Position numbers and translations under genes: made by a program. The notes beneath the pieces are model-generated. The model ran no database searches. It worked only from the letters and a program-made list of their open reading frames with translations, and was not told the DNA's origin. This document shows, in pieces, positions 6,465 through 63,881 of a stretch of 64,000 nt of DNA. Every line of letters starts with the position of its first letter. Positions within the stretch are counted from its first letter, which is position 1. Source of the DNA: Octopus vulgaris (taxonomy: Eukaryota); the NCBI GenBank assembly GCA_951406725.2, contig OX597821.1:75640001-75704000 (forward strand). Reading direction: 5' to 3'.

Positions 6465-7140
6465 AATAGTTTCAGCCGGAGACTGAGGCCATGATACAGC
6501 ACTGCCTATCAGTACGTTTGTGTTTCTGTTTACCACTGTTTTCGGTGAAGCAGCGAGTTGGGCGGAACTGGTTTTCTTTGTGCCTTCTTGTGGATTCATC
6601 TGGTATTTCAGCTAAACATTTGTCCGAACGCTCCTTGAAGACTTCCACATCTACACCACGCAAATGTCTGAGATTGCTTGACAGAATGTTGAACAGTTGT
6701 GAACTCTTGCAACCCAAGATGTGACAGTATTAGGTCCTTATTCTAAATGAAAAAAAAACAGGATCTTTGATGCTATGCAGCGCCGTCTAGTTCGATGGTT
6801 TCTATAGCTTTTAATTCTAGGAGGGCGGCGAGCTGGCAGAAACGTTAGCACGCCGGGCGAAATGCGTAGCCGTATTTCGTCTGCGCTACGTTCCGAGTTC
6901 AAATTCGATATATTAAGTACCAGTTACGCACTGGAGTCGATTTAATCGACTAAATCCCTTTGTCTGTCCTTGTTTGCCCACTCTGTGTTTAGCCCCTTGT
7001 GGGTAGTAATGAAATAGATAGCTTTCAATTCCAAATTCGGGAGCTGGACCTTCCAGGATCTTCCATACACTTATCACTGCATATCATTCAGATCTTCTCT
7101 TTCAGGAATAGAACCTCTGTTCCTTTAGCCTCTGCCAAAC
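6465..7140 (-). mobile_element. CR1-type LINE 3' fragment interrupted by a family B SINE
   Basis: Minus-strand peptides WQRLKEQRFYS, YAVISVWKILEGPAPEFGIES and SQLFNILSSNLRHLRGVDVEVFKERSDKCLAEIPDE. 3' tail CATGGCCTCAGTCTCCGGCTGAAAC. Confidence 0.8.
6822..7017 (+). mobile_element. SINE family B with ~14-bp target-site duplication
   Basis: Head GGCGGCGAGCTGGCAGAAAC. Flanked by ATAGCTTTTAATTC (6804-6817) and ATAGCTTTCAATTC (7018-7031). Confidence 0.85.
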
Positions 7141-7280: not shown

Positions 7281-7760
7281 TTAGTTTCTTTTGCTTGTTT
7301 CAGTCGGCAGACGACGGTCATACTGGGCCACCGTCTTGAAGAAGTTTTTGTCAGGTGAATCTGCCCTAAGGTTTATTGTGGGCCACCGCCTTGAAGAACT
7401 GTTTATCGAGTGAATCGACCCTAAAGCTTATTTTTAAAAAGCCTGGCACTTATTCTATCGGTTCTTTTTGCCGAACCGCTATGTTACGGAGACATAAACA
7501 CACCAACACCGGTTGTTAAGCGGTGGTGGAGGAAAAACACAAAGACACACGCAGATACAAAGACACACACACACTCACACACAGGCACACACGCGCGCAT
7601 ATACAACGGGATTCTTTCGGTTTCCGTCTACTAAATCCACTCACAAGGATTTGGTCGACCCGAGGATATAGTAGAAAACACTTACCCAAGGTGCCACGCA
7701 GTAGGACTGAACCGAGAACTATGTGGCTGGGAAGCAAGTTTCTTACCGCACAGCCACGCT
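7281..7760 (-). mobile_element. SINE family A, diverged copy
   Basis: Colinear with 1205-1633. Has a local duplication of TGGGCCACCG(T/C)CTTGAAGAA near the tail. Confidence 0.85.
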
Positions 7761-10717: not shown

Positions 10718-10722
<5 letters not shown>

Positions 10723-10930
10723 TTACTGGTTTACTTGTTTCGGTCATTTGACTGCGGTCATGCTAGAGCACCGCGTTTAGTCGAACAAATCGACCCCAGG
10801 ACTTATTCTTTGTAAGCTTAGCGCTTATTCTATAGGTTCCTTTTTGCCGAACTGCTAGGGTACGAGGAGGTAAACACACCAACATCGGTGTCAAGTGAGA
10901 GTTGGGGGACAAACATAGACACACAAATAC

Positions 10931-10979
<49 letters not shown>

Positions 10980-11143
10980 CGATGAGATTCTTTCAGTTTC
11001 CGTCCACCAAATCCACTCAAGACTTTTGTCAGCCCAAGGCTACAGTAGAAGACGCATGGCCCGAGGTGCCATGCAGTGGAACTGAACCCGGAACTGTGCG
11101 ATTGGGAAGCAAGCTTCATACTACACAGCCACTTCAGCGCCTA
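10718..11143 (-). mobile_element. SINE family A
   Basis: Same head, body and GGTCATTTGACTGCGG tail as the other copies. Confidence 0.88.
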
Positions 11144-11860
11144 TTTAAACAGTGACAAAGAATGCAGGGAGCACCAGCTTTGCTAGAAATAGGAGTCAAA
11201 GGATTCTTTAGCCACAGAAAGCACATATTCTATTCAATGACAGGGGAGACAAACTCCCCACCACAACTGAGTGGCGTCAATGTATATAGATTTTACCATG
11301 GGAATGAATGGAGTTTGTCTCTCCTATCAGGAAATAGAAAATGAGCTTTCTGTGACTAAATGTGTATAGATCAAATTTCACTGATTAGCTTATTAATAAG
11401 CCTTGATCTTGTAACTGTAATTGTCTGGGTAAATACATTTATCACAATACTGTAGTTTTTCTAGTACTACATTATGATTCGTATAAGAAAAAGAAGGAAA
11501 AGCATTTTGCGTTTCCAGTATGCACTGTTGTGGAAGGAAGAAAGAATAGACAAGTAGAGAAAAATAAACAACAAAATAATGGAGTAAGGAACGCATAGCA
11601 CACACATTCTTATACACACATGTATATATACATATGCACTTGCATGCATAATACATACATGCATGCATGTATATACACACATAAATCTATATATACATAA
11701 ATACGTATATACATATATATATTTTTTTTTTTTTTACTAATATATAAATATGTATATATATGTATGTATGTGTGTGTATATGCGTGTATATATAAATAAA
11801 TATATATATATTTATGTATGTATATATGTGTATATGTGTATGTGTGTTTTTGTGTGTGTG

Positions 11861-15748: not shown

Positions 15749-16230
15749 GAGATTTTAATTTCCCCAGAAGTTTTAATACTTACAACGCGGCAATCGCGGT
15801 ATCTTCGTATTTTTTGGAAATAGCCTTGATAAAGAATCCGCATGGTCTAACCTCTTGGATGCTATATATTCCATCTTAAAGTCGTAATTCCTCAAGATCG
15901 TAAACCCAGTGTTGTAACCTATTTGCAGTATGGCTAGGAATTCTTTTCTTCGGCCCCAAAATTGATAATAATGGTCGGTGATGAGTTCGTAACCGAAAAC
16001 TTCTACCGTACAAAAATCTGTGAAATTTCTTCAAGGCAAAAATGATCGCTAGAGCCTCTTTCTCTATTTGACTATAGTTTTACTCTGCCGCTATCAGAGA
16101 ACGTGAGGCATGATCCACTGCCTTCATGTTACTGTCTTGTATAATATATTTGTGTAGCATTACTACTCCTATGCCGTATTCAGAAGCGTCTCCATCGCAG
16201 GATCGAAATGAACCAGACAAATCCGATATA

Positions 16231-16657
16231 CTCTTTTACTCTTTACTCTTTTACTTGTTTCAGTCATTTGACTGCGGCCATGCTGGAGCACCGCCTTTAG
16301 TCGAGCAAATCGACCCCGGGACTTATTCTTTGTAAACCCAGTACTTATTCTATCGGTCTCTTTTGCCGAACCGCTAAGTGACGGGGACGTAAACACACCA
16401 GCATCGGTTGTCAAGCGATGTTGGGGGGGGGGACAAACACAGACACACAAACATATAAACACACATACACACACATATATATATACATATATACGACAGG
16501 CTTCTTTCAGTTTCCGTCTACCAAATCCACTCACAAGGCATTGGTCGGCCCGGGGCTATAGCAGAAAACACTTGCCCAAGATGCCACGCAGTGGGACTGA
16601 ACCCGGAACCATGTGGTTGGTTAGCAAGCTACTTACCACACAGCCACTCCTGCGCCT
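16231..16657 (-). mobile_element. SINE family A, young copy inserted between Gypsy RT and RNase H
   Basis: Full head to tail. Removing it plus one ATAT copy rejoins pol as ...KKILI-SDL... Confidence 0.93.
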
Positions 16658-18949
16658 ATATTAATATTTTTTAATATGTTCAAACGCCTTTTGACAATTA
16701 TTTGACTAATTCCATTTCCCACAGCTTTCTTTCAGCAAATTATTTAGTGGAGCTCTCAATTCATGTATATTTGGTATACAATTTTGATAATAATTCTCTT
16801 GACCTAGAAAAGCTTGTAAGGTCGTTATATTAGTCTGAGGAGGCATATTTCCAATTGCGTTTGCCTTGGACGGGTGCGGTGGTCGTCCATTCCTGTCGAT
16901 AATTTCTTCTAAATACTTAATTTTAGGTAAGAAAAATACACATCTTCTTCACTCAGTGTGGAACCGTAATCTATTATTTTTTTTCAAAAATACATTTTAT
17001 ATGCTCTAAATGCTAATCATGAGAGTCACTTTTAATTAATATATCATCCAGGTATGGAATTGCTAATTCACAATACGCTAACACTGCATCCATAACTTAT
17101 TGGAAAATTGCAGGTGAGACCTTTAGACCAAACGGTAATCTGATATGTTAATATAGTCCTTTATGAGTATTCACTGTTAGGTATTTTGAGTATTCTTCGT
17201 CTACTCTAATTTGTAGGTACGCGTCAGAGAGATCCAGTTTCGAAAATATTTTGCCCCGTTTAACTTCGGCAAAATATCTTCCGAAGTACGTAGCTGGTAG
17301 TGACATGTTTTCAGATGTTCATTCAAGTCAGTGGAAAAATCGGCTCACACACTGATTTTGTTATTCTTTTTTTTTAATATACACTTTTGGAGCTGCCCAT
17401 TTTGCATATTCCACTTTTTGGATGACGCCAATTCTCTCTAATCTGTTTAATTTTTCGTAGACATGCTTCGTCACAGCAAATGGTACCATTGTGTTTGGTT
17501 TGAACTCTGGTATTGCGTTTTCTTTAAATTGGAAATGTGCCTTAGTACACAAACTTAATTTATCCGACAATAATTGAGGAAAAGCATTTCAAAATTTTTT
17601 CTTCATTTCATCTGACACTTTAATCTTATTGAAAGAACAATCATTTATGTTTTTACAGAACAGGTTTATGAGGTGGTCCTTTAAATCAAACATGTCCATC
17701 CAGTCAATACCGAACAAGTTGTTGCATATTTTTAACACAAACACATTTGCTTTACAAGTTTTACCACGAAATGTAATGTCGCTTACCATTTTGCCTTAGA
17801 AGTGTAATCTTTCACCTGTGACACCTTACGCACTTTTCGATGTTTCCCACTATTCTTCCACGTGTCGGTATTAATAATTGAAATGTCGCTACCTATGTCT
17901 AGTTGTAGTTTCATGTTCGCGTCGTGTATTTTTACATTCACATATTTTCTTTTTGGGGTGACGTTACGACTTGCCGTTGAGTAAACCTTTTTAGAAGGTT
18001 CTTTTTCCGACCTTCTTTGCTTCGCTATGCAGTGCCAGATTTTATGTCTTATTTTTGACAACTAAATCATTTCCGAGTTTTAAATGGACAGACTTTCTTA
18101 AAATACAGACCTCCACACCCATAGAATGGATTTGGTAGTAACACTATATTTTTCTTATTTATTCCCGGTCGATATGTCTATACTTGAAAGAAATTTTTTT
18201 TTCGTCCTGTCGCAATTTATAATTCCTTGACATTCCTCTACTACTGCCAACAGGGTTAAATTTTGGCCCTCCTGTTCCAGTTTTGTAAGAATCCGTGCGC
18301 GTATTTCTGTATCTTTGCCGTCAAACCTTGCACAAAAATGAGGCATTCAAACATGTCCAGAGAGAATTATTTCAGCTTAAATTTTTCGCACATTCTATTT
18401 ACGATTCCAGAATAAGTGGCAAACTCTTCGTCCTCTTTCTTTACTAAGTTCAAACACTCCCACCGAGTGTTAAGCAGGGAACGCATACCGTTGAACATTT
18501 TGGATAGCAATTCAACTGTTTCCTAGAAGTAAATTTCACTTGTTTTTATGCAAGATAAAACTGCAATATTTTTTATGCTCAGTAGATTCACTTCATCGTC
18601 TATCTAACACTTGCATTCTTCCTTGGAGATTTCTTTGTAACTTCTGAAGTACGCCGAAAAGTTACACCCTCTTCTGGGTTGCAACTAAATTCAGTTATAG
18701 CATTCACTACGCCGTCATTCGAAAACGAACTTGCTGTGTTTCCCTTCTTCTTTGACCATAACTCCATCAACTGTTTGTGTGGTAGTTGTTGCTGCTGTTG
18801 CTGTTGCTTTTGCAATTGTAATATGTCAGCTGATGGGTCTTCCATAATTAACTAATTTGTTGTATTCTAAAAAATTGTTAATGATCAACGTAAGCTTCGA
18901 ATCACTTGTGACCACTTTTATAACGTGGTTTCTCTATATGTCACTAAAT

Positions 18950-19470
18950 TCCTGACGCGCCTCGCCTTCAAGAACCATGCCACTGCGGATAACCGACGAA
19001 AACACCAGCAAGCATCAGCGGAATGCCAGCGGGGAATTAGAGAATCTCAGAACATCTGGCTCCTGAGAAAAGCAGATGAGATGAAAAACTATGCGGACCA
19101 AAGAGACTTGCGCCGCTTTTTTGCCGCAACCAAGGAGCTCTTCGGCCACACAAGGTCATCAGTGGGTGGCCTGAAGCCCGCAGATAGCTCTACGATAACC
19201 GATACCCACGGATTCCTCGATCGCTTGAAGTCCCATTTCGAGAGCCTAATTAACGACCACTCACGCACTCCAGATAATCTCCTCCAAAAAACCCCCACAG
19301 CTTCCCATCCGCCATTGGATGCCTCTGCGGCCCTCGCCCATGAGTTCAATAAGGCACTCGAGCGTATGAAGCCGGGCAAAGCTTCAGGACCAGACAACAT
19401 CCCATTTGAGTTTTTCACGCAAGGAGATCCTGTGCTGAGAAATCATCTGATGCCCCTTATCCTTATTGAT
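18950..19470 (+). mobile_element. RTE-clade (BovB-like) LINE ORF2 fragment, linker plus start of RT
   Basis: WLLRKADEMKNYADQRDLRRFFAATKELFG and EFNKALERMKPGKASGPDNIPFEFFTQGDPVLRNHL resemble RTE ORF2 (KAPGPDGIPAE motif). GC-rich relative to its flanks. Confidence 0.82.
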
Positions 19471-20459
19471 CAATGGAAATGCGGCGATTCAATCGACATA
19501 CCCCTCCCCTCAAAACTGCTGGCCTGGTGTCAAACTTTGAAACTAGAACACGAGCTAGAATGAACTTAGCTAAAGATATGTAATAACCAGATGCTTTTGG
19601 TGGAAAATGGGTGAAAGATTAAGACTATTTCTCATGGCATCTAAGTACAAAGAACCAGAACATGTGTTACATTGTCAATTTACATTCTTGAACTTTACTT
19701 CATCGACCCCAAAATACTGAAAAGCAAAGGTACCTACAACGGAATTTGAGTCGATAACTAAGAGCCAGAATATATATCTCAAGATATTTTTTCCTTCGCT
19801 CTTTCACCTCTCCGTATGCGCAGTTGATGAATCAAAAGCCAGTCAGTCAGAAAGTTATTTGATTTGGCAACAGAAACAAGACCGAAGTCCAGACCCCTTC
19901 GTCCGCTACCCTAGCATGTTACTGATTTGGCCATCTTCCTTAATAAAAGTCTCTGCCTAAAATAATTTGTATTCAACTTTGCTTTCGTTTCTATTATTTT
20001 TTGTGAATGACTTCTCTTAGACCAAATGAATATATTTCCCACGTAATCTGTTCACTAAGTTCATAAATAATGTGCGTTCTTATTGTTGATATTTGAAAAC
20101 AGAAAATGAAATATTAGAAGAACATGTTTTAAGTATGATTGATATTTCTGTATTTAATTTTCCGTTGTTAATTTGTACATAATTAGTGAGCAAACGGGAA
20201 ACTAAAACAAATTATAGGACGAACTAGAAGCAAAACATATTTGAAATACGTCAGAAATCCAATTTACTATCACAGAACTAAAGCACTTTAATAATAAGTT
20301 ATGTAATATTTATAACCAACAATAAGGCCATAGGGAAACAAGTTTATATATATATACACACACATATATTCGTTCATGCTTTCGATTCGAAATCCTCTAC
20401 TATTTTATACGTATGTATGTATCCAGGTCAATAACATCTTAATTTTATTCTGGATTTCT

Positions 20460-21100
20460 AAGTGGTGGACTAACAGAATCTTTGTCACACCAAGCAAAAT
20501 GCTTAGCGGTATTTCGTCTGCAGTTACGTTCTGAGTTCAAATTCCGCCGAGGTCGACTTTGCCTTTCATCCTTTCGGGGTCGATAAATTAAGTACCAGTT
20601 ATGCACTGGGGTCGATATAATCGACTTAATATGTTTGTCTATCCTTGTTTGTTCTCTCTGTGTTTAGCCCCTCGTGGGTAGTAAAGAAATAGGTATTTCG
20701 TCTGTCTCTACGTTCTGAGTTCAAATTCTGCGGAGGTCAACTTTGCATTACATCCTTCAAGCTCCATAAAATAAGTACCAGTCGAAGACTAGTGCCGATG
20801 TAGTCGACTTAAGCCCTTCCCTGAAACTGCTAACTTTGTGTCAAAATTTGAAGCCAATATTATTTTGGATTTGAAGGCGACGCCCTGGCTGAATCGTTAC
20901 TACACTGGACAAAATTTCTAGCAGCGTCTCGTCTGTCTTTACGCCCTCAGTTTAAATTCCACCGAAATCCACTTTGCATTCCATCCATTCAAGTTCGATA
21001 AAAGTATCATCTGAGCACTGGTGTCGATATAATCTACTTGCCCAGAACCCTCACTCCGAAATTGCTGGCCTTGTGCCAAAATTTGAGATCAATATATTAT
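20460..21100 (+). mobile_element. SINE family B dimer (20460-20870) followed by a diverged monomer (20875-21100)
   Basis: Repeated TATTTCGTCTG...GTTCTGAGTTCAAATT...GATAAA..AAGTACCAG units. Confidence 0.85.
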
Positions 21101-25497: not shown

Positions 25498-26073
25498 AAT
25501 AAACCCTTCAAAGCTGTGGACACGGCATTGCCGCAATCAAAGAAATAAAACAAGTAAAATAAAAAAAACATAGAAATAAACAAGCTTTTGAGGGTTTTAT
25601 AGATATTTCAAAATGATGATGTTATGATGCTAGTTGTTTTCATTATGTTGTCCAACCCCAGTATATATATAGATATATATACGACGGGCTTCTTTCATTT
25701 TCCGTCTACCAAATCGACTCGCAACGCATCTTAGGGGATATAATTTTGGAAGCAGTTACAGATGGTGACTGTCTTAAAAACATCTTCGATCATAGCTCAA
25801 TGGATCAGGACGACTCAAAAGTTAAACAACGACATTAACAACAAATAAATACACATACGTACTGAATATGAATAGGATATTCAATATTCAAAGAGGGGGA
25901 ATAGTAAGAATCAAACAACATATGTTTGCGGCACATATTCGAGTCATTTTGTGCCAAATCACCTGAGACACTTCCACATGTAGGCAAATCATTCCCGCAC
26001 TGCACTCATTAAGCTGAAGAGAAATGGAAACATCACTAGGCTTCAACGCATTACATGTAAGCTGTATTTCTAA

Positions 26074-28160
<2,087 letters not shown>

Positions 28161-28461
28161 AGAGCAAATAATTCAGGAGAAAATACTTGCGAAAATATTA
28201 TTGACTCTGTTATTATCTAGTGTAACAGTTAGATAGTTAACCCAAGTTAAAGTCTCACGCAATGAGGTAAAGCCAAGACCTGAATGTTTATATACGTCTT
28301 CATCACATAGCAATGCTTGATTTCCGATTTAATAGAGCTTAAGCCTTTTGTACAACTTCTTGACCACGTGTCCATTCTTATATGTTGTAGATATCAACAA
28401 AAAGAAGAATATGATGACGGAATCAGCGAAGCATCAGCTGTAAATTTTGGTAAGAATAATA

Positions 28462-29010
28462 TCCATCCTACTCTGGCACAAGGCCTGAAATTTGAGGGTG
28501 GGGCCAGTCGATTAGATCGACCCCAGTACGCAACTGGTACTTAATTTATTGACCACGGAAGATGAAAAGCAAAGTCGACCTCGGCGGAATTTGAACGCAG
28601 AGCATAAAGACAGACGAAATAGCTATCTCTTTACTACCCACAAGGGGCTAAACAAGGACAGACAAACGGATTAAGTTGATTATATTGACCCCAGTGCGTA
28701 ACTGGTACTTAATTTATCGACCCCGAAAGGATGAAAGGTAAAGTCGACCTCGGCGGAAGTTGAACTCAGAACGTAGCGGCATACGAAATGCCTATTTCTT
28801 TACTACCCACAAGGGGCTAAACCCAGAGGGAACAAACGGATTAAGTCGATTACATTGAGCCCAGTGCGTAACTGGTACTTAATTTATCGACTTGAAAGGA
28901 TGAAAGGCAAAGTCGACCTCGGCGGAAGTTGAACTGAGAACGTAACGGCAGACGAAATACGGCCACGCATTTCGCCCGGCGTGCTAACGAATCTGCCGGC
29001 TCGCCGCCTT
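28462..29010 (-). mobile_element. SINE family B trimer: one head, three ~170-bp body units, terminal tail
   Basis: Head at ~29010. Units at ~28790-28960, ~28620-28790 and ~28465-28620, each with GTTCAA.TTCCGCCGAGGTCGACTTT. Confidence 0.85.
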
Positions 29011-29019
29011 AAAATATGA

Positions 29020-29232
29020 TCATTTCTACTATAGGCACAAGGCCTGAAATTTGGGGGAGGGGAATAGTCGATTGGATTGACCCCAGTACTCAACTGGTTC
29101 TTAATTTATCGTTCCCTGGAAGGATGAAAGACGAAGTCGACTTCGGCTGAATTTGAACTCAGAACCTAGTGGCAGACGAAATACAGCAGAACATTTCACT
29201 CGGTGTGCTAACGATTCTGCCAGCTCGCCCTT
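29020..29232 (-). mobile_element. SINE family B monomer
   Basis: Head GGGCGAGCTGGCAGAATCGTTAGCAC. Tail AATTTCAGGCCTTGTGCCTATAGTAGAAA. Confidence 0.87.
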
Positions 29233-31645: not shown

Positions 31646-32179
31646 ACATATTGTGTTAGGGGAAAAGCGGCAAATCAATTGAAAATTGCTGTCGGTTGTT
31701 TTGACAGCTATGCATGCATGCTATACAAATAAATTTATCTATCATAAGGAAAGAACACAGAATTACCAACGTAATATTTGGGTATTAAAAAGAAAAAGCA
31801 TAAGAAAAATCCTTCTAAGAGACTAGGGTGCCAAATATATTGTTTTAGAAAATACTTCAAGCATTAGAGTCGGATACACCGCCTCCTATTAAATGGTATT
31901 AGAGAGTCTATATGAAATAATATACATTCGCAAGTAGACGCATATGCACAATCATGAGGATGTAACTGAAATCCTAAGTATTCTTCTATAAAGTGTATTT
32001 CTAAAGCTGCGTGCAAAAACGATGGATGTCAATTTTGGTAAAATGCTGGATGGAGCTCCCTGCGATATCGTGTTATGCTCCCTTATATTCTAAGTTCAAA
32101 TCCTGCTAGAGTTCACATACTCTTGCGCATGAACACACGAACACACAGACACTTGAATTGTAATGTAGATTCTAAGTAA

Positions 32180-32390
32180 GTTGGGGAGCTGGCAAGATCG
32201 TTAGGATGCCGTACAAAATGCTTAGCAGTATTTCGTCCGCCTTTGCATTCTGGTTTCAAATTTCACCGATGTTGACTTTGCCTTTCATCCTTTCAAGGTC
32301 GATAAGATAAGTACCAGTTATGCACTGGGGTCGATTACATCGACTTATCCTCCGAAATTGCTAGCCTTATACCAAAACCTGAAACCAATA
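32180..32390 (+). mobile_element. SINE family B, diverged
   Basis: GAGCTGGCAAGATCGTTAGG...GCCTTTCATCCTTTCAAGGTCGATAAGATAAGTACCAG. Confidence 0.8.
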
Positions 32391-34461: not shown

Positions 34462-34643
34462 GACGTAGGAGTGGCTATAGGCGTAGGTGTGGCTGTGTGG
34501 TAAGTAGCTTGCTTCCCAACTACATAGATCCGGGTTCAGTCACACTGCGTGTCACCTTGACAAGTGTCTTCTACTATAGCCTTGTAAGTGGATTTGGCAG
34601 ACGGAAACTGAAAGAAGGCCGTTATATATATATATATACATAC

Positions 34644-34675
<32 letters not shown>

Positions 34676-34932
34676 ATGTATATGTACATAAATATATATA
34701 TATATATATGTATGTATGTATGCATATATATATGTTTGTGTGTGTGTGTCCTCTCACCATCGCTTGACAACCGATGTTCTCGTCCCCGGAACTTAGCGGT
34801 TCATCAAAAGATATCCATAGCATAAGTATTAGGCTTACAAAGAATAAGCTCTGGGTTGATTATTTGTTTGCCTAATGGCAGTGCTCCAGCATGGCTGCAG
34901 TCAAATGACTGAAACTAGTAAAAGAGTAAAAG
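34462..34932 (+). mobile_element. SINE family A with duplicated 5' head
   Basis: GACGTAGGAGTGGCTAT-AGGCGTAGGTGTGGCTGTGTGGTAAG. Tail CAGCATGGCTGCAGTCAAATGACTGAAACTAGTAAAAGAGTAAAAG. Confidence 0.88.
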
Positions 34933-39278: not shown

Positions 39279-39516
39279 GTACAGTTCTATATTTAAGAGA
39301 TGAGGAATTATGTACATTATTTACATTATAGACATTTGACGGATATTTGTTCTCATCTTGTTTGTTGTTAACATAACATTTCGGCTGATATACCCTCCAG
39401 CCTACATCAGGCGTCTCGGGAAATTTCGAACCTGGGTTCTCATTCCTAAGGTATTTTTCTATGTTATTATTATTATTATCAATATTATTCCCCAACTCTT
39501 AAATATAAAACTGTAC
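39279..39516. mobile_element. Hammerhead-bearing repeat (Penelope-terminus-like) with 21-bp terminal inverted ends; sister of 58328-58580
   Basis: About 130 bp near-identical to 58328-58460. GTACAGTTCTATATTTAAGAG (39279-39299) vs CTCTTAAATATAAAACTGTAC (39496-39516). Confidence 0.8.
39370..39415 (-). ncRNA. Mutated minimal hammerhead-like motif
   Basis: GACGC CUGAUGU A GGCUG GAGGGUAUAU CAGCC GAAAU GUU AUGUU (A9 changed to U). Confidence 0.6.
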
Positions 39517-39659
39517 TCTCTCACTTAGTAAACCGAATTGAAGTATAAACTAGGTACCAGGACAGGGTTGTGATAACTATTGCTGAAAACGCTATGTATA
39601 ATGTAGGCTAAAGAAAATGTAAAAATGGTTTTGATTTATTTTATAACTAGATTAACAAT

Positions 39660-39940
39660 CCTTTCTACTATAGGCACAAGACATGAAATTTGGATGGGAG
39701 TGATGGGGAGAGTCGATTAGACCGACTCAAGTACGCGACTGGTACTTAATTTATCGACCCTGAAAGGATGAATGGCAAAGTCGACCTCGGCGGTATTTGA
39801 ACTCAGAACATAAAGACAGACGAAATACCTATTTCTTTACTACTCACAAGGGGCTAAACACAGGGAGGACAAACAAGGACAGACAAACAGATTACGTATT
39901 TCGCCCAGCGTGCTATCGACCCTGCCAGCTCACCGTCTAA
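39660..39940 (-). mobile_element. SINE family B dimer with the first core deleted
   Basis: The head joins directly to the linker ATCTGTTTGTCTGTCC, followed by one full body unit and the tail. Confidence 0.82.
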
Positions 39941-41208: not shown

Positions 41209-41243
41209 GTTTCTGAAGAAGAGCTTTGCTCGAAACATAAAAT
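41209..41243 (+). ncRNA. Minimal type I hammerhead-like motif, GAGC/GCUC family
   Basis: GUUU CUGAAGA A GAGC UUU GCUC GAAAC AUA AAAU. Both conserved boxes are intact; C-A mismatch in stem III. Confidence 0.7.
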
Positions 41244-41379: not shown

Positions 41380-42659
41380 ATCTCAGTGTCTGACAAAGAG
41401 ACTTGCAGCTCTTAGAATATGGCATCATCTTCGTCTAACGCCTTTATGAAAAGAAACAATTGTAATATTTGTCTTATAATCTTGACCTTCCGTATTATTT
41501 CCGGAAGTGTTGTTTTGTTTGTGTACGAGTGAATAAAGTGAACAGAGAAATGTGAAAGATGTTACTTTTATGATGTGAATAAGAGTATCTACTTTCTTTC
41601 TCTCTCTATCATTCGAATAACATTTTTTTTAAAATTCTAATCATAAAATTTCGATATTACTTGATGATATATAAACATATCTGATACTTTTCTTTTTACA
41701 GGTTGATTTATTGACAAATTAGAAGCGATGGAACTAAGCAACTCTCTCTCCTGTGTCTCATAGACAGCCATAGTCAACAGATTTAAACCAATCATCTGAT
41801 AATTCGAAATCGTGTGACATTTAAGCATGGAAACTTTTCACTGACGAAAACTTAATTTTTACTCGAGAGACAAGAAGCATAAGGTCATTTATTTCTGGCA
41901 AAACACTAATTTATCTCCCTTGAGACACAGAAATACATCAGCCAACCTCAGTAACAATCATACTAAACTGTCACCAATGAAAGTCAATCTTCTGCCGCTA
42001 CTTGATTTGGTTTGCAAAATTAGAAACGATTCAGCAGAACTAGTTTCCATAAACTTTACCTTACCATAGTATTAATTAGGTAAATTGATACCATCACATT
42101 ACAGACTTGTAACTGTAACCTAAACAGATAAAACGATATTTGAGAATATTCTTAATTTAATTATGTATCAGGCAGATTTGTTAGTAGTGTTCCATTACGC
42201 CGCATCAGCTGCATATTACACTAGCATATATCTTTCCAATCTATATATTATCTCCTTTGCTGCATTTCCTTACTTTGAATGTAAGCAAGGGGAACTGGAA
42301 TTAAGAACCCAATCAACGAAAAAACAAATTTAGTTATTTTAAGTGAAACCCGAACTCGCATCGCTTGGTAATCCCTTTCAAAAATTTCGCTCCTAGAAGA
42401 TGGTCAATATTTACCATTAATTGAGTTTACAACCACATCTTATTTATATTCTATTTAATATCAACATTGATGCAGAGAAATTAATTTTTCATGCCATCAT
42501 GCTAATAGAATGCAAACCACCAATAACCTCCAATTAAGTTGGTTTGGATTACTGTTAGATTATCAACGACTACAAGTCGATTTCTCTGAGACAGTTTGCA
42601 CTTCTTATCCTCGCTAAAAATATCACCTGATAGAGAAACGGGTAAAAAAAGAATCGTTA

Positions 42660-42875
42660 TAACATTGGTTTCAAATTTTAGCACAAGACCAGCAAGCTCA
42701 TGGAAGGGAGGTAAGTCAATTGTATCGACTCCAATGTACTTATTTTATCGACCCCGAAAGGATGAAATAAAAAAAAAATAACCTTGCTGGAATTTGAACT
42801 CAGAACGTAAAGACGGACGAAATGCCGCTAAGCATTTTTGCCCGGCCTGCTAACGATTCTGCCAACTCGCCGCCA
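42660..42875 (-). mobile_element. SINE family B monomer
   Basis: Head GGCGGCGAGTTGGCAGAATCGTTAGCAGGCCGGGC and B box GAGTTCAAATTCC. Confidence 0.85.
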
Positions 42876-46104: not shown

Positions 46105-46165
<61 letters not shown>

Positions 46166-46184
46166 CATTATTATTATTATTACT

Positions 46185-46380
46185 GCGAGCTGGCAGAATT
46201 TTTAGCACCCTGGCATTTCGTCCGTCTTTACGGTCTGAGTTGAAATTCCACCGAGGTCGACGTTGCCCTTCTTCGTTTCGGTGTCGATAAATTAAGTTCT
46301 AGTGAAACACTGGGACCGATGTAATAGATTAGTCCCCTCACCACAAAATTTCAGGCCTTGTGTCTAGAGTAAAAAGATAT
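46185..46380 (+). mobile_element. SINE family B, diverged
   Basis: GCGAGCTGGCAGAA...CCGAGGTCGAC...TCGATAAATTAAG...AATTTCAGGCCTTGTG. Confidence 0.82.
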
Positions 46381-48656: not shown

Positions 48657-50103
48657 CTATGTGCGTGTGTGTATGTGTGTGACGTATCCACGTATGAATG
48701 CATGCTCGAGTGTATGTACTAACTAGTGTACATTCACACCTACAAATATATTTATATTTAATTATCACGGTATTTCCTATTCGCTTACCTTCACCACTTA
48801 CCTTCCAAGGTGCCTAAATAAATTCCTAACAAAATATTATTAGATCATGCCCGTAATTCTTTTCAATTTTAACAGAAGACCAACAGTTTTGAGCGGAGGG
48901 GCATGACGAACACATTGAGCCCGTACTTGATTGGTACTTCATTCTATCGATCTTGAAAAGATGAAAGGCGTAGTTCATGCCGGCGGGTCATATACATAAT
49001 TAATACGGTGTGTTCTGCCATCGTTATGCTGTACGTTCCTTTTTCATTAATGATCAAAACATGGACATGAAACAGGCTGTTTACTCTTGACCGTACAAAA
49101 ACATGCACACTCGTAATACAGCAATACGAAAGCTAAGTCGTAAGTATGAATAGTTATGGAATAATAAGCTAAAAATGCCTTCTTACCACAATGTCAGAAT
49201 GGAATGGCAAACAATACACTGATGTACATAGTCTTTCTTCATTGCGTATACGGTCTCTTCCACAAAATAATGGTAAAACTAGCTTCTAATGATTCAGCCT
49301 ACGAGTCACTACGTAGTTGCTCAACTTGACAATCGCAGCCAAAGCTCTCTCAACTCACAGCCCGTCGTCTTAATAGCAAAGGATAAATTTGATCATGTAT
49401 TTCTATGTAAATAAGATGAAATGATCACGGTTAAAATAATAAAAAGTCTCCCGGCCAAAGATGTCGTGGAACTAAACATAAACAACTAGGTTTTGAGTCC
49501 TAACATGTAAAGTTTATGAAAAGCTTGAAACTGACCTGACTCAAATCAAAATCAATCTCAGCTTTATATTGCCGTTAATTATTTATAAATATCAAAACAT
49601 TAAGAAGAATTTCAAAGCTGTGAAGTCCATTAAAATTGTTATCCACTTTCTATGTATAAGAACGGACAGACCTAAAGCTCTCCAATTGAGAAAAACCATC
49701 ACGTTCTTCGACTATTTGAGCGTCATCGACTATTTGAACGATATAAGCTTTCCAAATTTTTTCGTGGCTATTTCTGTTTACGACGGATATGCTACATTTT
49801 CAGAAAAAATATCAACCCACACAATTCTCAAGCTGATTCTGAGTAAAAACTATCAACAAGCTATCGCTTTTTGATCCTCTAACGATATAAACACGGGACT
49901 AATATAGAAAGTGTTAATTTCTGATGAAAACATAATGTTTTTCTCCATTTCCTGTTTGAAGACATGCGTGAGCAGGCGAACATTTACGTTGTAATTTTCT
50001 TTCGCCAGGATAAGTTCTCCAGTCAGATGGATGCTCCGTAATTATATTTATTATATTTATTATTGATACTTTTAATTATCTTTATTAATATTTCTTATAC
50101 ATG

Positions 50104-50462
50104 AAGGCGGCGAGCTGGCAGAAACGTTAGCACACCGGGCGAACTACTTAGTGGTATTTCGTCTGCCGTTATGTTCTGAGTTCAAATTCCGCCGAGGTTG
50201 ACTTTGCCTTTCATTCTTTCGTGGACGATAAATTAAGTACCAGTTACACATTGGGGTCGATGTAATCGACTTAATTTATTTGTCTCTCCTTGTTTGTCCC
50301 CTCCATGTTTAGCCCCTTGTGGGCAATAAAGAAATAAGAAACGCTAGAACGCCAGGAAAATTACTTAGCGGCGTTTTGCCCGTCTTTACATTGTGCGTTC
50401 AAATTCTACCAGAGTCGACTTTGCCTTTCATCCTTTCGGGGTCGATAAAATAAGTACCAGTG
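50104..50462 (+). mobile_element. SINE family B dimer
   Basis: Head AAGGCGGCGAGCTGGCAGAAACG. The second unit restarts at AGAAACGCTAGAACGCC. Confidence 0.87.
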
Positions 50463-56144: not shown

Positions 56145-56722
56145 CACCTATGGATGACTTTCTTTCTCAGCCGCTTGGACTACTCTGGTCCCCAGAGAGT
56201 GTGAAACAAACGGCGGAACTCGAAGCAATATAATGCCAATACTCAAAGACTGACTCTATGCAAAAGATGGGCTACTGGGTGAGGTTAAAGGAACTGAGTC
56301 TCTATTCCCTGGAGAGGAGACGAAAGAGATATGCGGTGATGTATATATATGGAAAATCTTGGAGGGTTTAGCTCCCAGTTTTGCAATTGACAGCTATACC
56401 AATCCTCGAACTGGACAGCACTGCATCGTACCAAAGATCCCGTCTTCTCTATCTAAAATAAGGACAAGTACTGCAATAAACTGGGTTTCAAGGACCCGCA
56501 ATTGTTCAACATCTTTCCAGGCCACCTTGGAGATCTACATTGTGTTAATTGTGGCAGTTTTCAGTTAACGTCTGGACAGGTTTCTATCTGAGATACCAGA
56601 GGAATCCACATCGCGTCCAACTCGCTACTTCACCAAAAACAATACCAGAAACAACACCGAGTATTACAGGTGGTGCACCAGCATGACCTCAGTCGTGGGC
56701 TGAAACCAGTAAAAGGTAAAAG
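56145..56722 (+). mobile_element. CR1-type LINE 3' fragment with tail
   Basis: FLSRLDY, LWSPESVKQTAELEAI, YWVRLKELSLYSLERRRKRYAVMYI and WKILEGLAP. Tail CCAGCATGACCTCAGTCGTGGGCTGAAACCAGTAAAAGGTAAAAG. Confidence 0.88.
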
Positions 56723-56891: not shown

Positions 56892-58418
56892 GAGAAAGGG
56901 ACAATTTCTAAGAAGGTGGAGAAGAAGAAATCACCAAGGGGCCACGTGTTGTTACATTGCTGAAGTGACCGGAAGTTGGTGAGAAATTACACTGACAAAG
57001 GAATGGACATAAAGATGTATGTTAGGAAATTACTTAGCTTACAGCTGTTTCTACTTTAAGATGCAATGCATTCATAGTTGAATTCTTGAGTATGACCCTG
57101 TAGTTTCATCGGAGTTTCAAATATGAAGTTGCTTATTTGGCTGTTTTGATTTTTAGGCTACCAGACCTATTTATTTGATCAAGTTAAATAATAAAGTAGA
57201 TACGTCTACAACATGAATATATTTGATAAACTACACTTAGACAAAGCTTTCGATTTGAGTTGGCCAAAATCTACTTCCCTTTCGGACGCTGGACAAGGAG
57301 AAACTGCAAAAAGATTCTCACTTATAATGTCTTATACCAACTAAATAATAAAATTTTAAACACAGACAGTGGATAAATCCGATACAGTCAACGGCACAGC
57401 AGCCGTTGTTGTAAGTGGTGAACGTTCAACAAAATAGACAATTAAGAAATCTATCTATCTATCTGTCTATCTATCTATCTGTCTATCTATCTGTCTGTCT
57501 ATCTATTTGTTTGTCTTTCTGTCGGTATGTATGTATGCATGTGTGTATGTGTGTGTATGTATGTATGCATGTATGTATCTATGTTTGTATGTATGTATAT
57601 ACGTACATACGTAAATGCATATGTATGTGCGCGAAAGAAAATTGTTCTTTTATTGTAATTACCAGTAAAAACATAAGTAGACCAAGAAAGAACACAATAC
57701 AGTGAGATAACGTGCAAACCAGTTTGCGATCACTCCTCTAACAAGAGATAAGTACCAAATCTCCCTTGATTTGTACATCACCATAAATAACTCCACAGTG
57801 GATCAGAATTTCTTGTCTGAATATTGAGGAATGGACGATTTTCCATCACTGCAATCTATTTTCCTTCTAATTTCTTCTTTGAAAACTATAAAACAAAAGC
57901 GATGTCCTTTCTAAACTTAAGGAGACAATGACATCAGTATCTTGAGCAAATTTTATTTATCAATGACAACAGTGTGCTCAGAGAATTAATAATAAACAAA
58001 ATTATGAACTGCTGTGTTAGTTTATAGAAATATCCTTTTATGCGAAATCTCACGTGCGCCATCACCTGAAACAGAGAATGAAATGAAGCTGTTGGACGAG
58101 ATATTTCTTTTAATTTTCTTCCTTATTAGAAAAAAAAAATGGAATAGGCCGTTAGCGACACTTGTGTAATTTGCGTTTCTTCCAACTCAACCGTTTCGTC
58201 CATTTTTGTTTACCATTTAGACCTTCACTTTCCAGGTAATGTCCATCTCAATATTTAAAAACGAAAATCCTCATTTCTATCTGTCACACTTTAACAAAAA
58301 AATAGATAATACAAATCTGCTTAAGAAGTACAGTTCTATACTTAAGAGATGAGGAATTATGTACATTATTTATATTATTTACATTTGACGGATATTTGTC
58401 CTCATCTTGTTTGTTGTT

Positions 58419-58464
58419 AACACAACGTTTCGGCTGATATACCCTCCAACCTTCACCAGGTTCG
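58419..58464 (-). ncRNA. Hammerhead-like motif (A6 changed to G)
   Basis: CUGGUGA A GGUUG GAGGGUAUAU CAGCC GAAAC GUU GUGUU. Confidence 0.6.
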
Positions 58465-58476
58465 AATTTTCCCCAA

Positions 58477-58522
58477 GACACTTGATGAAGGCTGGAGAGT
58501 ATATCAGCCGAAACATTGTGTT
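58477..58522 (+). ncRNA. Hammerhead-like motif (C3 changed to U)
   Basis: GACAC UUGAUGA A GGCUG GAGAGUAUAU CAGCC GAAAC AUU GUGUU. Stem I GACAC/GUGUU and stem II GGCUG/CAGCC. Confidence 0.65.
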
Positions 58523-59268
58523 AACAACAAACAAGTTGAGAACAAATATCCGTCAAATGTAAATAATGTAAATAATGTGCTATGAAGTGTTGGAAGTTTT
58601 AGAGACAACGACAATTATTCAATCGTAGTACCTTTTGTTATTCTCTTATCAAGTTTAGGCTTAGTCAGGGCAAAGATATTTTATTACTTTGATCTCTTTG
58701 AAAGGTCATTGATATGGAAGGGCAAATGACAAACAACAACTAAGAGTTGCTACAATAAAATCAGAATCATAAATCCGGTCACTTGGAGGGAGATCTTGAA
58801 GCAAACTGTACAACACAAAAAGCATGCGAGTACGTAGCGGCTCTGCTGTGGGTTTGATTCTTTTCTTGTTTCCTCATTATCGTTAACCATTCGCTTTTCA
58901 TCTTCCAGGAACTCGTCGGCTGTGGTCAGAATAGTTCTACAATGGTTCAGTCTCCCGCCATGTTTAAATGGCTGAAGACATGTTTTTTTTTTATCACGAA
59001 GACACATCTGTGATCCTTTCAGACTTGAGCTTCGATGCAAAGATTTATGTGTGTGTATCTCTGCGCGCAAGTATATATATGTATAAGTAAACTTGTGTTT
59101 GTGTACGTATGCGTCCCTTAGTGTGTATGTATAGTGTGTATGTATATATATATATATATATATACAAAAATACACATACATGCATACACACTAACATACT
59201 CACACGTATATATATATATATATATACAAAAATACACATACATGCATACACACTAACATACTCACACG

Positions 59269-62959: not shown

Positions 62960-63345
62960 TTATTTTTTTTATTTCATCTAGTTTCAGCTCACGAGCTGTG
63001 GCCATGCTGGGGTAAGGCTATTTGGTGTTGCTACATAATTTTACTTAACGAATGCTTTTTAGCTATTGACATTTGGTGCATGAGAAAGTTTGATACAGCT
63101 GCCCTCGTCTGCACTTCCTACCGCGAAGTTAGTTCATCTGGGACACCTGACAGGAAGAGGTCCAGCATTATTTTGAAGACACCTACATCTACTCCATGCA
63201 GGTCTCTCAGGTCCTTCGGTGGGATATAGAAGAGCTGTGGACCTCTGAAGCCCAGGCTATTGCAGTATCTTGTCCTAAGTCTTGATGGCAAATTTGGAAA
63301 CCTTGGCTCTATGCAGTGGAGCCCAGTTATTCTATACCTTCCATA
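62960..63345 (-). mobile_element. CR1-type LINE 3' fragment with tail
   Basis: RITGLHCIEPRFPNLPSRLRTRYCNSLGFRGPQLFYIPPKDLRDLHGVDVGVFKIMLDLFLSGVPDE, homologous to 6465-7140 and 56145-56722. Tail CCAGCATGGCCACAGCTCGTGAGCTGAAACTAG. Confidence 0.85.
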
Positions 63346-63881
63346 TTGCCGAATAATGTAACACGTTTTTGGCAAGTGGTGGTCAGTGGCAGGAAGATGT
63401 GACTTGAATGTTTCATATACACTAGATTTCGTGAAAATTTTATAGTAATTATATAATAAAATTGCTTCGATACAATATTTAATGGCGTCAAGCGTTAAAC
63501 ATTTTATATTTCAGCCATCAGAGATTTTGTGTACTATTGCAATCGGTTTTGTTTGTGTAAATATTTTTCATATCTATATGTAGTATAAATATAGAGCGGT
63601 GGAAGAACAATGCACTAATATTTACTGGAAATAGCAGTCGATACAACGCTATAGTAAAGCTTCACTATATATTTATATGTAAATAATATTTATATGTAAA
63701 TAGACTGAGTTTCTAAGGAACGTTAAACGCACCTCATGAAATACATGTAGAAGAGAAACTTAGAACTGATTAGTAAGTATTAAAATAAAATTCTATGATA
63801 TGGTGTTATGTATATATATATATATATATTAATATATTGTTAATATATTTTAAATATATATATATAAAGAGAGACAGAGAG

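Follow-up and report, generated by a model that had tools for sequence, protein, structure and literature searches.

An old head-to-head insertion of an abundant hammerhead repeat, probably of Penelope-like origin, in Octopus vulgaris

Introduction

Insertions of Penelope-like elements (PLEs) can carry an inverted, 5′-truncated copy at their 5′ end and an optional tail of 30–40 bp (PMC8557442; PMC3846280; this and later statements on published work refer to excerpts of the papers named). In vitro, this tail corresponds to the sequence that separates two start sites of reverse transcriptase (RT), and cutting and extension take place on both target strands (PMC11167929). Minimal hammerhead ribozymes lying close together on opposite strands have been known since 2014, when Cervera and de la Pena described them 100–700 bp apart in Schistosoma (PMC4209133). 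For the non-LTR retrozymes, a PLE origin or mobilisation by PLEs has been proposed (PMC7229834; bioRxiv 10.64898/2026.07.22.740005).

Here we analyse a palindrome in a stretch of 64,000 nucleotides of the Octopus vulgaris genome (contig OX597821.1; the window). The locus, referred to below as 58k, is probably an old copy of an abundant hammerhead repeat that is present as two head-to-head pieces. The repeat likely represents the 3′ end (pseudo-LTR) of a PLE or of a non-coding derivative. A second copy of the same family in the window is referred to as 39k.

Results

Features of the window

The window is microsatellite-rich, animal-like DNA, and the coordinates of its features are collected in Table 1. 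A SINE-like repeat is very common in it, often in tandem or inverted clusters. The LINE-like frames are ones that we take to be RTE-like and CR1/L2-like. No tRNA was found in the window. A 72-residue stop-free frame on the minus strand (58753–58968), receptor-like by eye, was set aside; it gave no Pfam match, and no homologue was found among three longer candidates.

Table 1 Coordinates of features in the window, with strand where one was assigned
Feature	Position	Strand	Remarks
SINE-like repeat	1793–2025, 6821–7020, 20441–21098, 28455–29229, 32177–32390, 39658–39897, 42657–42874, 46116–46376, 50041–50461
Second dispersed repeat	1200–1636, 7401–7757, 10720–11148, 16228–16664, 34476–34931		about 430 bp; internal microsatellite; five copies, 66–92%
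Stop-free frames	18871–19563, 56254–56568, 63118–63510	+, +, −	LINE-fragment look by eye; no Pfam match
Degenerate (TA)n tract	26000–28200		2.2 kb
Second family copy with tail (39k)	39279–39465	−	hammerhead remnant at about 39370–39415
Inverted solo tail (39k)	39484–39516	+	33 nt, 88%; opposite end of the 39k insertion
Candidate decayed target-site duplication, left	58318–58329	+	TGCTTAAGAAGT; last two bases common to the element end
Left repeat copy	58328–58461	−	5′-truncated, inverted; ends in the full family 3′ end
Tail	58328–58362	−	35 nt; left arm only
Left palindrome arm	58363–58461		99 nt; partner is the right arm
Left hammerhead remnant	58419–58459	−	core CUGGUGA; one G-U change in stem II; AACGUU intact; 5′ strand of stem I missing
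Inversion junction	58456–58461	.	CAGG(T) fits both orientations
Right repeat copy	58456–58578	+	5′-truncated, direct, without tail; 89.4% to 39314–39435
Spacer	58462–58479	+	18 nt; family sequence directly upstream of the ribozyme, single copy
Right hammerhead remnant	58477–58522	+	stems I and II 5/5; core UUGAUGA; consensus cut would follow 58517
Right palindrome arm	58480–58578		99 nt; 18 nt from the left arm
Candidate decayed target-site duplication, right	58578–58588	+	TGCTATGAAGT

The family is abundant and its consensus is a predicted minimal hammerhead

The 58k palindrome belongs to a very abundant repeat. Part of the stretch is present in 20 of the 24 public runs listed, and the family was examined in the contigs of four public runs at 85% likeness (about 80% of run X1 and 98% of run X7 were read). 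Between 20,314 and 32,456 contigs per run fall on the element, as compared to one contig for each flank. Summed depth on the element is about 1e5 to 3e5 times the flank depth, a ratio that is a sign of abundance and not a copy number. Within the window itself, a 15-mer from the ribozyme with up to two mismatches has three matches where 0.12 are expected.

From these three copies the initial annotation had derived a hammerhead with complete stems I and II and a palindromic stem III. The same majority is recovered from the wider family, whose majority by summed depth agrees with that of the three copies in all four runs. C3 accounts for 95–98% of the depth, A6 for 97–99%, G12 for 86–92%, C15.2 for 81–88% and G16.2 for 82–92%, and the CUGAUGA core and the stems are retained in every run. 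The motif has the core pattern CUGANGA and GAAA-N-N-UH, a stem I of 5 bp, one additional base between positions 9 and 10.1, a G10.1-C11.1 pair and a zero-loop stem III with palindromic 15.2–16.2. These traits match the features listed for minimal hammerheads, and the proposed kinship with the ribozymes of PLEs therefore stands. When the three-copy majority is folded alone, the predicted pair probabilities are 0.70–0.99 for stem I and 0.97–1.0 for stem II. Judged from its sequence, the consensus of the family belongs to the minimal type I hammerheads. Ribozymes of this kind would require a dimer; a dimer result for them was reportedly obtained by Lunse et al. in 2017.

Variation within the family is of several kinds. 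A sign of decay is seen at two CpG sites that lie outside the ribozyme, where 11–20% of the family depth carries a change. The unconstrained core position N7 (58486) reads A in place of U in 8–14% of the depth, a transversion outside CpG; this variant may mark a subfamily in which the ribozyme has been kept functional. A 9-nt unit before the tail (58365–58382) is present in two copies in both arms and in the 39k copy, and loose ends before 58374 suggest that many family copies have one unit. Positions 58400/58541 were considered as a subfamily marker for the arms; the less common base there is not phased and occurs too seldom to assign them. No locus with the family motifs was found in viral contigs, metagenome contigs or prokaryote genomes. 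The family may already be catalogued, in the supplements of PMC4209133 and PMC8557442 or in the repeat library of PMC13282606.

The palindrome consists of two truncated copies

The palindrome had been described as having inverted arms of about 100 bp. This was borne out by a pair of 99-nt arms that are 92% complementary, with 8 of the 99 columns mismatched, around an 18-nt spacer. The whole palindrome is predicted to form a single hairpin of −142.4 kcal/mol (z −23.6), which none of 200 shuffles equalled. Its left copy is 92.5% identical to the 39k copy (39279–39411) over 133 nt. Head-to-head, 5′-truncated copies with a tail on one arm are the layout of a known kind of inverted PLE insertion, in agreement with the Penelope-like structure originally suggested.

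We considered whether the palindrome could be an assembly artefact, that is, a fold-back chimera. Among the contigs listed, none crosses the junction at the centre. Those at the outer joins reach 24–31 letters into the element, which is at or under the 31-letter bridging rule. An artefact is nonetheless extremely improbable, as the arms carry the mismatches given above, the tail is found on one arm, the spacer is true family sequence and a candidate target-site duplication brackets the unit. The join between left flank and left arm recurs in four of four runs, and that between right arm and right flank in three of the four runs listed. Run X1 is identical to the window and may be its source, and is thus not independent for the joins. 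The outer joins are seen in runs under three organism labels, and in other runs the flanks differ by about 2.5–3.5%. The 58k insertion is likely an old copy that has since decayed neutrally.

The copies change orientation at a CAGG(T) microhomology

The inversion had been placed at a CAGG microhomology, and the comparison with the family upholds this with an overlap of 4–5 nt. Relative to the 39k copy, CAGG (58457–58460) is compatible with both orientations, and in the family majority so is 58461. The base at 58456 fits the sense arm alone, and family loose ends start behind 58461. A random junction would have a microhomology of at least 4 nt in 2.0% of cases and of at least 5 nt in 0.6%.

Similar joints are present elsewhere in the family. 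Among the 15 listed (of 192 joints), 12 lead from the left arm to the right arm at varied positions, some of them in two or three runs. Given the palindromic reference, we interpret them as further family insertions in head-to-head arrangement. The listed family joints are scattered and do not lie at one fixed position.

The family also has a short inverted repeat, located about 20 nt upstream of the ribozyme, and in the sense RNA pairing of this repeat with the initial core bases is predicted (probability 0.73). Pairing of the upstream CAGG lowers the predicted pairing of stem I from about 0.97 to 0.25. As a speculation that we regard as rather doubtful, this inverted repeat might attenuate self-cleavage, stall RT and serve as a preferred site at which cDNAs of opposite strands are joined.

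Both local motifs are damaged and likely inactive

The claim of a hammerhead-like motif in each arm holds insofar as each arm has a remnant; neither matches the consensus ribozyme. In the left motif, three of the five stem I pairs are formed, the 5′ strand of this stem is replaced by the spacer, and no hammerhead fold is obtained. Its G at position 6 corresponds to base 58456 and is supplied by the junction, where 97–99% of the family has T. Both lesions of the left motif (A6G and the loss of the 5′ strand of stem I) are there because the inversion junction falls at this point. The right motif carries C3U at 58482, with G8 uncompensated, and G16.2A at 58515, which leaves C15.2 and A16.2 unpaired. 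We expect the C3U and A6G changes to impair cleavage.

Taken by their sequence, both local motifs are thus damaged and likely inactive. Mutants of the C3-G8 pair (C3G/G8C) show that C3 matters in another PLE ribozyme (PMC11167929), and a U3-A8 covariant has been described among hammerheads (PMC4209133). Neither arm was hit in a search with the exact pattern CTGATGA...GAAAC, which gave two unrelated matches. Two look-alikes at 41209 and 50511, returned with the right arm by a relaxed descriptor that allowed one core mismatch, were taken as chance. In Rfam, no hammerhead family was found among the best 150 of 394 matches for the whole window (E ≤ 5), nor among the 12 matches for 58300–58620 (E ≤ 10). 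The microRNA matches in the latter interval lie far under the gathering score and were taken to reflect a generic hairpin.

The earlier statement that either strand yields a ribozyme is not supported, in view of A6G and the loss of the 5′ strand of stem I on the left and of C3U and G16.2A on the right. Each strand holds one sense motif and its antisense. With the motifs on opposite strands, there is no dimer in cis within one transcript. In a read-through transcript, the predicted pair probability of stems I and II of the right arm is 0.0, and forcing them would cost 46 kcal/mol. Provided the locus is transcribed, the ribozyme is predicted to be sequestered in dsRNA.

These results bear on whether 58k could be a retained functional unit, be it a ribozyme switch that works in both directions or a locus that provides dsRNA, small RNA or editing substrate. 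If transcribed, the 99-bp hairpin is predicted to be very stable, and the outer joins are common to runs under different organism labels. Four runs guessed to be RNA contain 25–27% of the sampled words, which may stem from any copy of the family. Set against this, the motifs are both damaged, the arms have diverged by 8% without compensation, and comparable joints are spread over many positions in the remaining copies of the family. Sharing across close lineages requires age alone. We thus regard retention of a function as highly improbable.

The ends suggest an optional tail and a decayed target-site duplication

The loose ends of the family cluster at 58329–58331 and at 58374/58576–58578, about 35 nt apart. 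Per run, and among the 24 of 1283 rows listed, 256–274 contigs end before 58329, 198–224 before 58374 and 103–140 behind 58578 (four runs). Among the matches listed, loose ends past both clusters are long, with a median of 255 nt and an agreement of about 0.4. Two 3′-end clusters at this distance therefore fit the optional 30–40-bp tail of PLEs. The right arm ends about 5–6 nt before the apparent tail-less end of the family, as estimated from a blurred loose-end consensus, and this counts against a PLE-type origin.

The sequence of the tail is absent from the right flank, where the best match is 16 of 35 positions. Fold-back of a single target-primed cDNA is therefore excluded for the left arm. 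The flanks are 64–72% AT, like the background of the window, and no preference for an AT-rich target, as associated with endonuclease-positive PLEs, is visible.

The candidate duplication of 11–12 bp matches in 10 of 12 columns, with one gap and one mismatch. It was equalled by 18 of 1500 random flank pairs (1.2%). From this single case, a decayed target-site duplication at 58k appears likely. If it is real, the element spans about 58330–58577.

The 39k copy

At 39k, the hammerhead remnant has the core CUGAUGU (A9U), a U at 15.2 and four of five stem I pairs. By eye, the 30 nt upstream of the motif are similar to the loose ends that the family shows before 58456. Between the body and the solo tail lies a short (AAT)n run. 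Over the roughly 18 codons visible, the frame upstream of the ribozyme (39411–39465 on the minus strand; 58456–58484) contains no stop, and in the majority sequence of the family it would terminate at a UGA within the core. By eye it has a weak likeness to the end of a GIY-YIG domain; at 39k it gave no Pfam match.

The termini of this copy prompt a different reading of the family, as a MITE of the Tc1/mariner type. Under this reading the tail would be a terminal inverted repeat of 33–35 bp, the hammerhead would have been captured and 58k would be a rearranged copy. The 33-nt inverted termini of the 39k copy are 88% alike and both start with GTACAG, which can be read as a TA duplication followed by CAG. 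The TA-CAG pattern of such ends is presumably that of Tc1/mariner-type elements. The inverted repeat is, however, missing from the right end of the 58k unit and present in form at 39k only. Hundreds of contigs stop where the tail begins on its inner side, internal truncation of variable extent is seen at many joints, and the 58k flanks suggest a duplication of 11–12 bp and not of TA. We accordingly judge a MITE very unlikely.

Two features of the 39k copy count against our preferred PLE reading: no target duplication beyond 4 nt was found there, and the copy is tailed at both ends, contrary to a strict rule of one tailed and one tail-less end. The 39k copy is MITE-like in look and probably another PLE-type insertion.

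Neither window locus has tandem hammerhead units. The window holds no full-length copies and no partial-tandem direct pseudo-LTRs. None of 12 frames of the window gave a Pfam match, and the upstream family sequence seen amounts to 30 nt. No RT or GIY-YIG gene was thereby linked to the repeat, which likewise counts against the PLE reading.

Discussion

Origin of the inverted arms

The evidence taken together makes it very probable that 58k represents an inverted insertion of the PLE type in which the motifs are dead. Given an insertion of this type, priming from both strands is a reasonably likely explanation of its two arms. In this scheme, the PLE endonuclease would cut both DNA strands about 11–12 nt apart. 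The 3′ end of the top strand would prime at the outer start site on the RNA and give the tailed arm, while the end of the bottom strand would prime at the inner site and give the tail-less arm. Both cDNAs would halt after about 120–135 nt, near the ribozyme. Their 3′ ends would then anneal over CAGGT and a terminal G-T pair, by means of the inverted repeat built into the family. Host repair would fix the G (G-T to G-C), and the core CUGGUGA of the left motif would exist because repair fixed the G of this pair. In active members of the family, tandem transcripts would be cleaved by the ribozyme, acting as a dimer or with the help of protein, as has been reported for other PLEs.

The initial annotation had called the palindrome a template-switch product. 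The junction is compatible with this, but a template switch is only one of two mechanisms that give such a junction. Closest to it is self-priming as modelled by Arkhipova et al. 2013 (PMC3846280), whose Discussion reads palindromic head-to-head junctions in this way. Applied to 58k, an antisense transcript or cDNA with the tail would fold at its 3′ end over CAGGT and prime its own extension, and endonuclease processing at integration would then produce the tail-less end. The junction fits equally, since the minus strand reads as antisense arm, spacer and, from the microhomology onwards, sense arm. The family itself supplies the necessary inverted repeat, for which pairing in the sense RNA is predicted at 0.73. 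In DNA, however, the fold-back hairpin is the preferred fold neither of the right-arm cDNA end nor of its 39k analogue, a point to which we give mild weight. Moreover, a PLE protein in vitro extends both cut strands from two internal sites on sense RNA (PMC11167929), and this accounts for the two types of end with no further step. Self-priming of an antisense strand is, on balance, the unlikely route, though one that merits being kept in view.

Returning to priming from both cut strands, it fits the single-base anatomy of the junction, the presence of a tail on one of the arms, and the likely duplication. The family is abundant enough to weigh both-strand priming versus antisense self-priming by counting. 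If the attenuator and joining-site role of the upstream inverted repeat were true, the many copies of the family would allow the joining hotspot and the rule of one tailed and one tail-less arm to be measured, and both-strand priming in PLEs could be tested directly at the genomic level. The locus itself, as a decayed insertion of a kind already described, is likely to be ordinary debris of the genome. It serves as one data point on how PLEs form inverted ends.

A related process is known from LINE-1. In its twin priming, cDNAs from the two target strands are joined by microhomology, and the 5′ part of the insertion becomes inverted. The pieces there are different parts of the RNA, whereas the arms at 58k cover the same stretch. 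A narrow search of titles and abstracts found no paper on twin priming for inverted Penelope insertions, and we do not claim that the idea is absent from print.

Comparison with known systems

Among the systems described in the excerpts cited, Adineta Pen2a (PMC3846280) is similar in its head-to-head terminal copies and in a tail found on one copy, which has 31 bp as compared to 35 at 58k. A short spacer or overlap at the junction is shared with Pen2a and with endonuclease-positive PLEs (PMC3846280; PMC8557442). Target-site duplications of the latter have about 8–10 bp (PMC3846280; PMC8557442), and the candidate at 58k has 11–12. Unlike endonuclease-positive PLEs, 58k keeps about 125–135 nt per copy and has no ORF between or beside the copies.

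The family motif resembles the minimal hammerheads of metazoan PLEs (PMC4209133) in lacking loop 3, in the palindromic 15.2–16.2, in the extra base before stem II, in G10.1-C11.1 and in the 5-bp stem I. Stem II has 7–8 bp in the Schistosoma families (PMC4209133), as compared to 5–6 bp here. The two cores at 58k start only about 23 nt apart, with the junction at the core, whereas those of Schistosoma are separated by 100–700 bp; both 58k motifs are, in addition, mutated. Metazoan non-LTR retrozymes (PMC7229834; bioRxiv 10.64898/2026.07.22.740005), in the parts consulted here, are likewise short non-coding repeats of high copy number with a type I hammerhead. They differ from the present family, which has no tandem unit at the window loci and a motif of the minimal PLE type.

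For the green anole element Poseidon_Ac, Frangieh et al. 2024 (PMC11167929) describe, in the portion drawn on here, an ORF that runs from the start of stem II through the tail. In the octopus family, the frame from the AUG of the core closes about 25 codons on. As in this family, Poseidon_Ac has two preferred 3′ ends past the hammerhead, separated by the tail, and the extension of both strands seen for it in vitro (PMC11167929) would yield a two-armed product like that at 58k.
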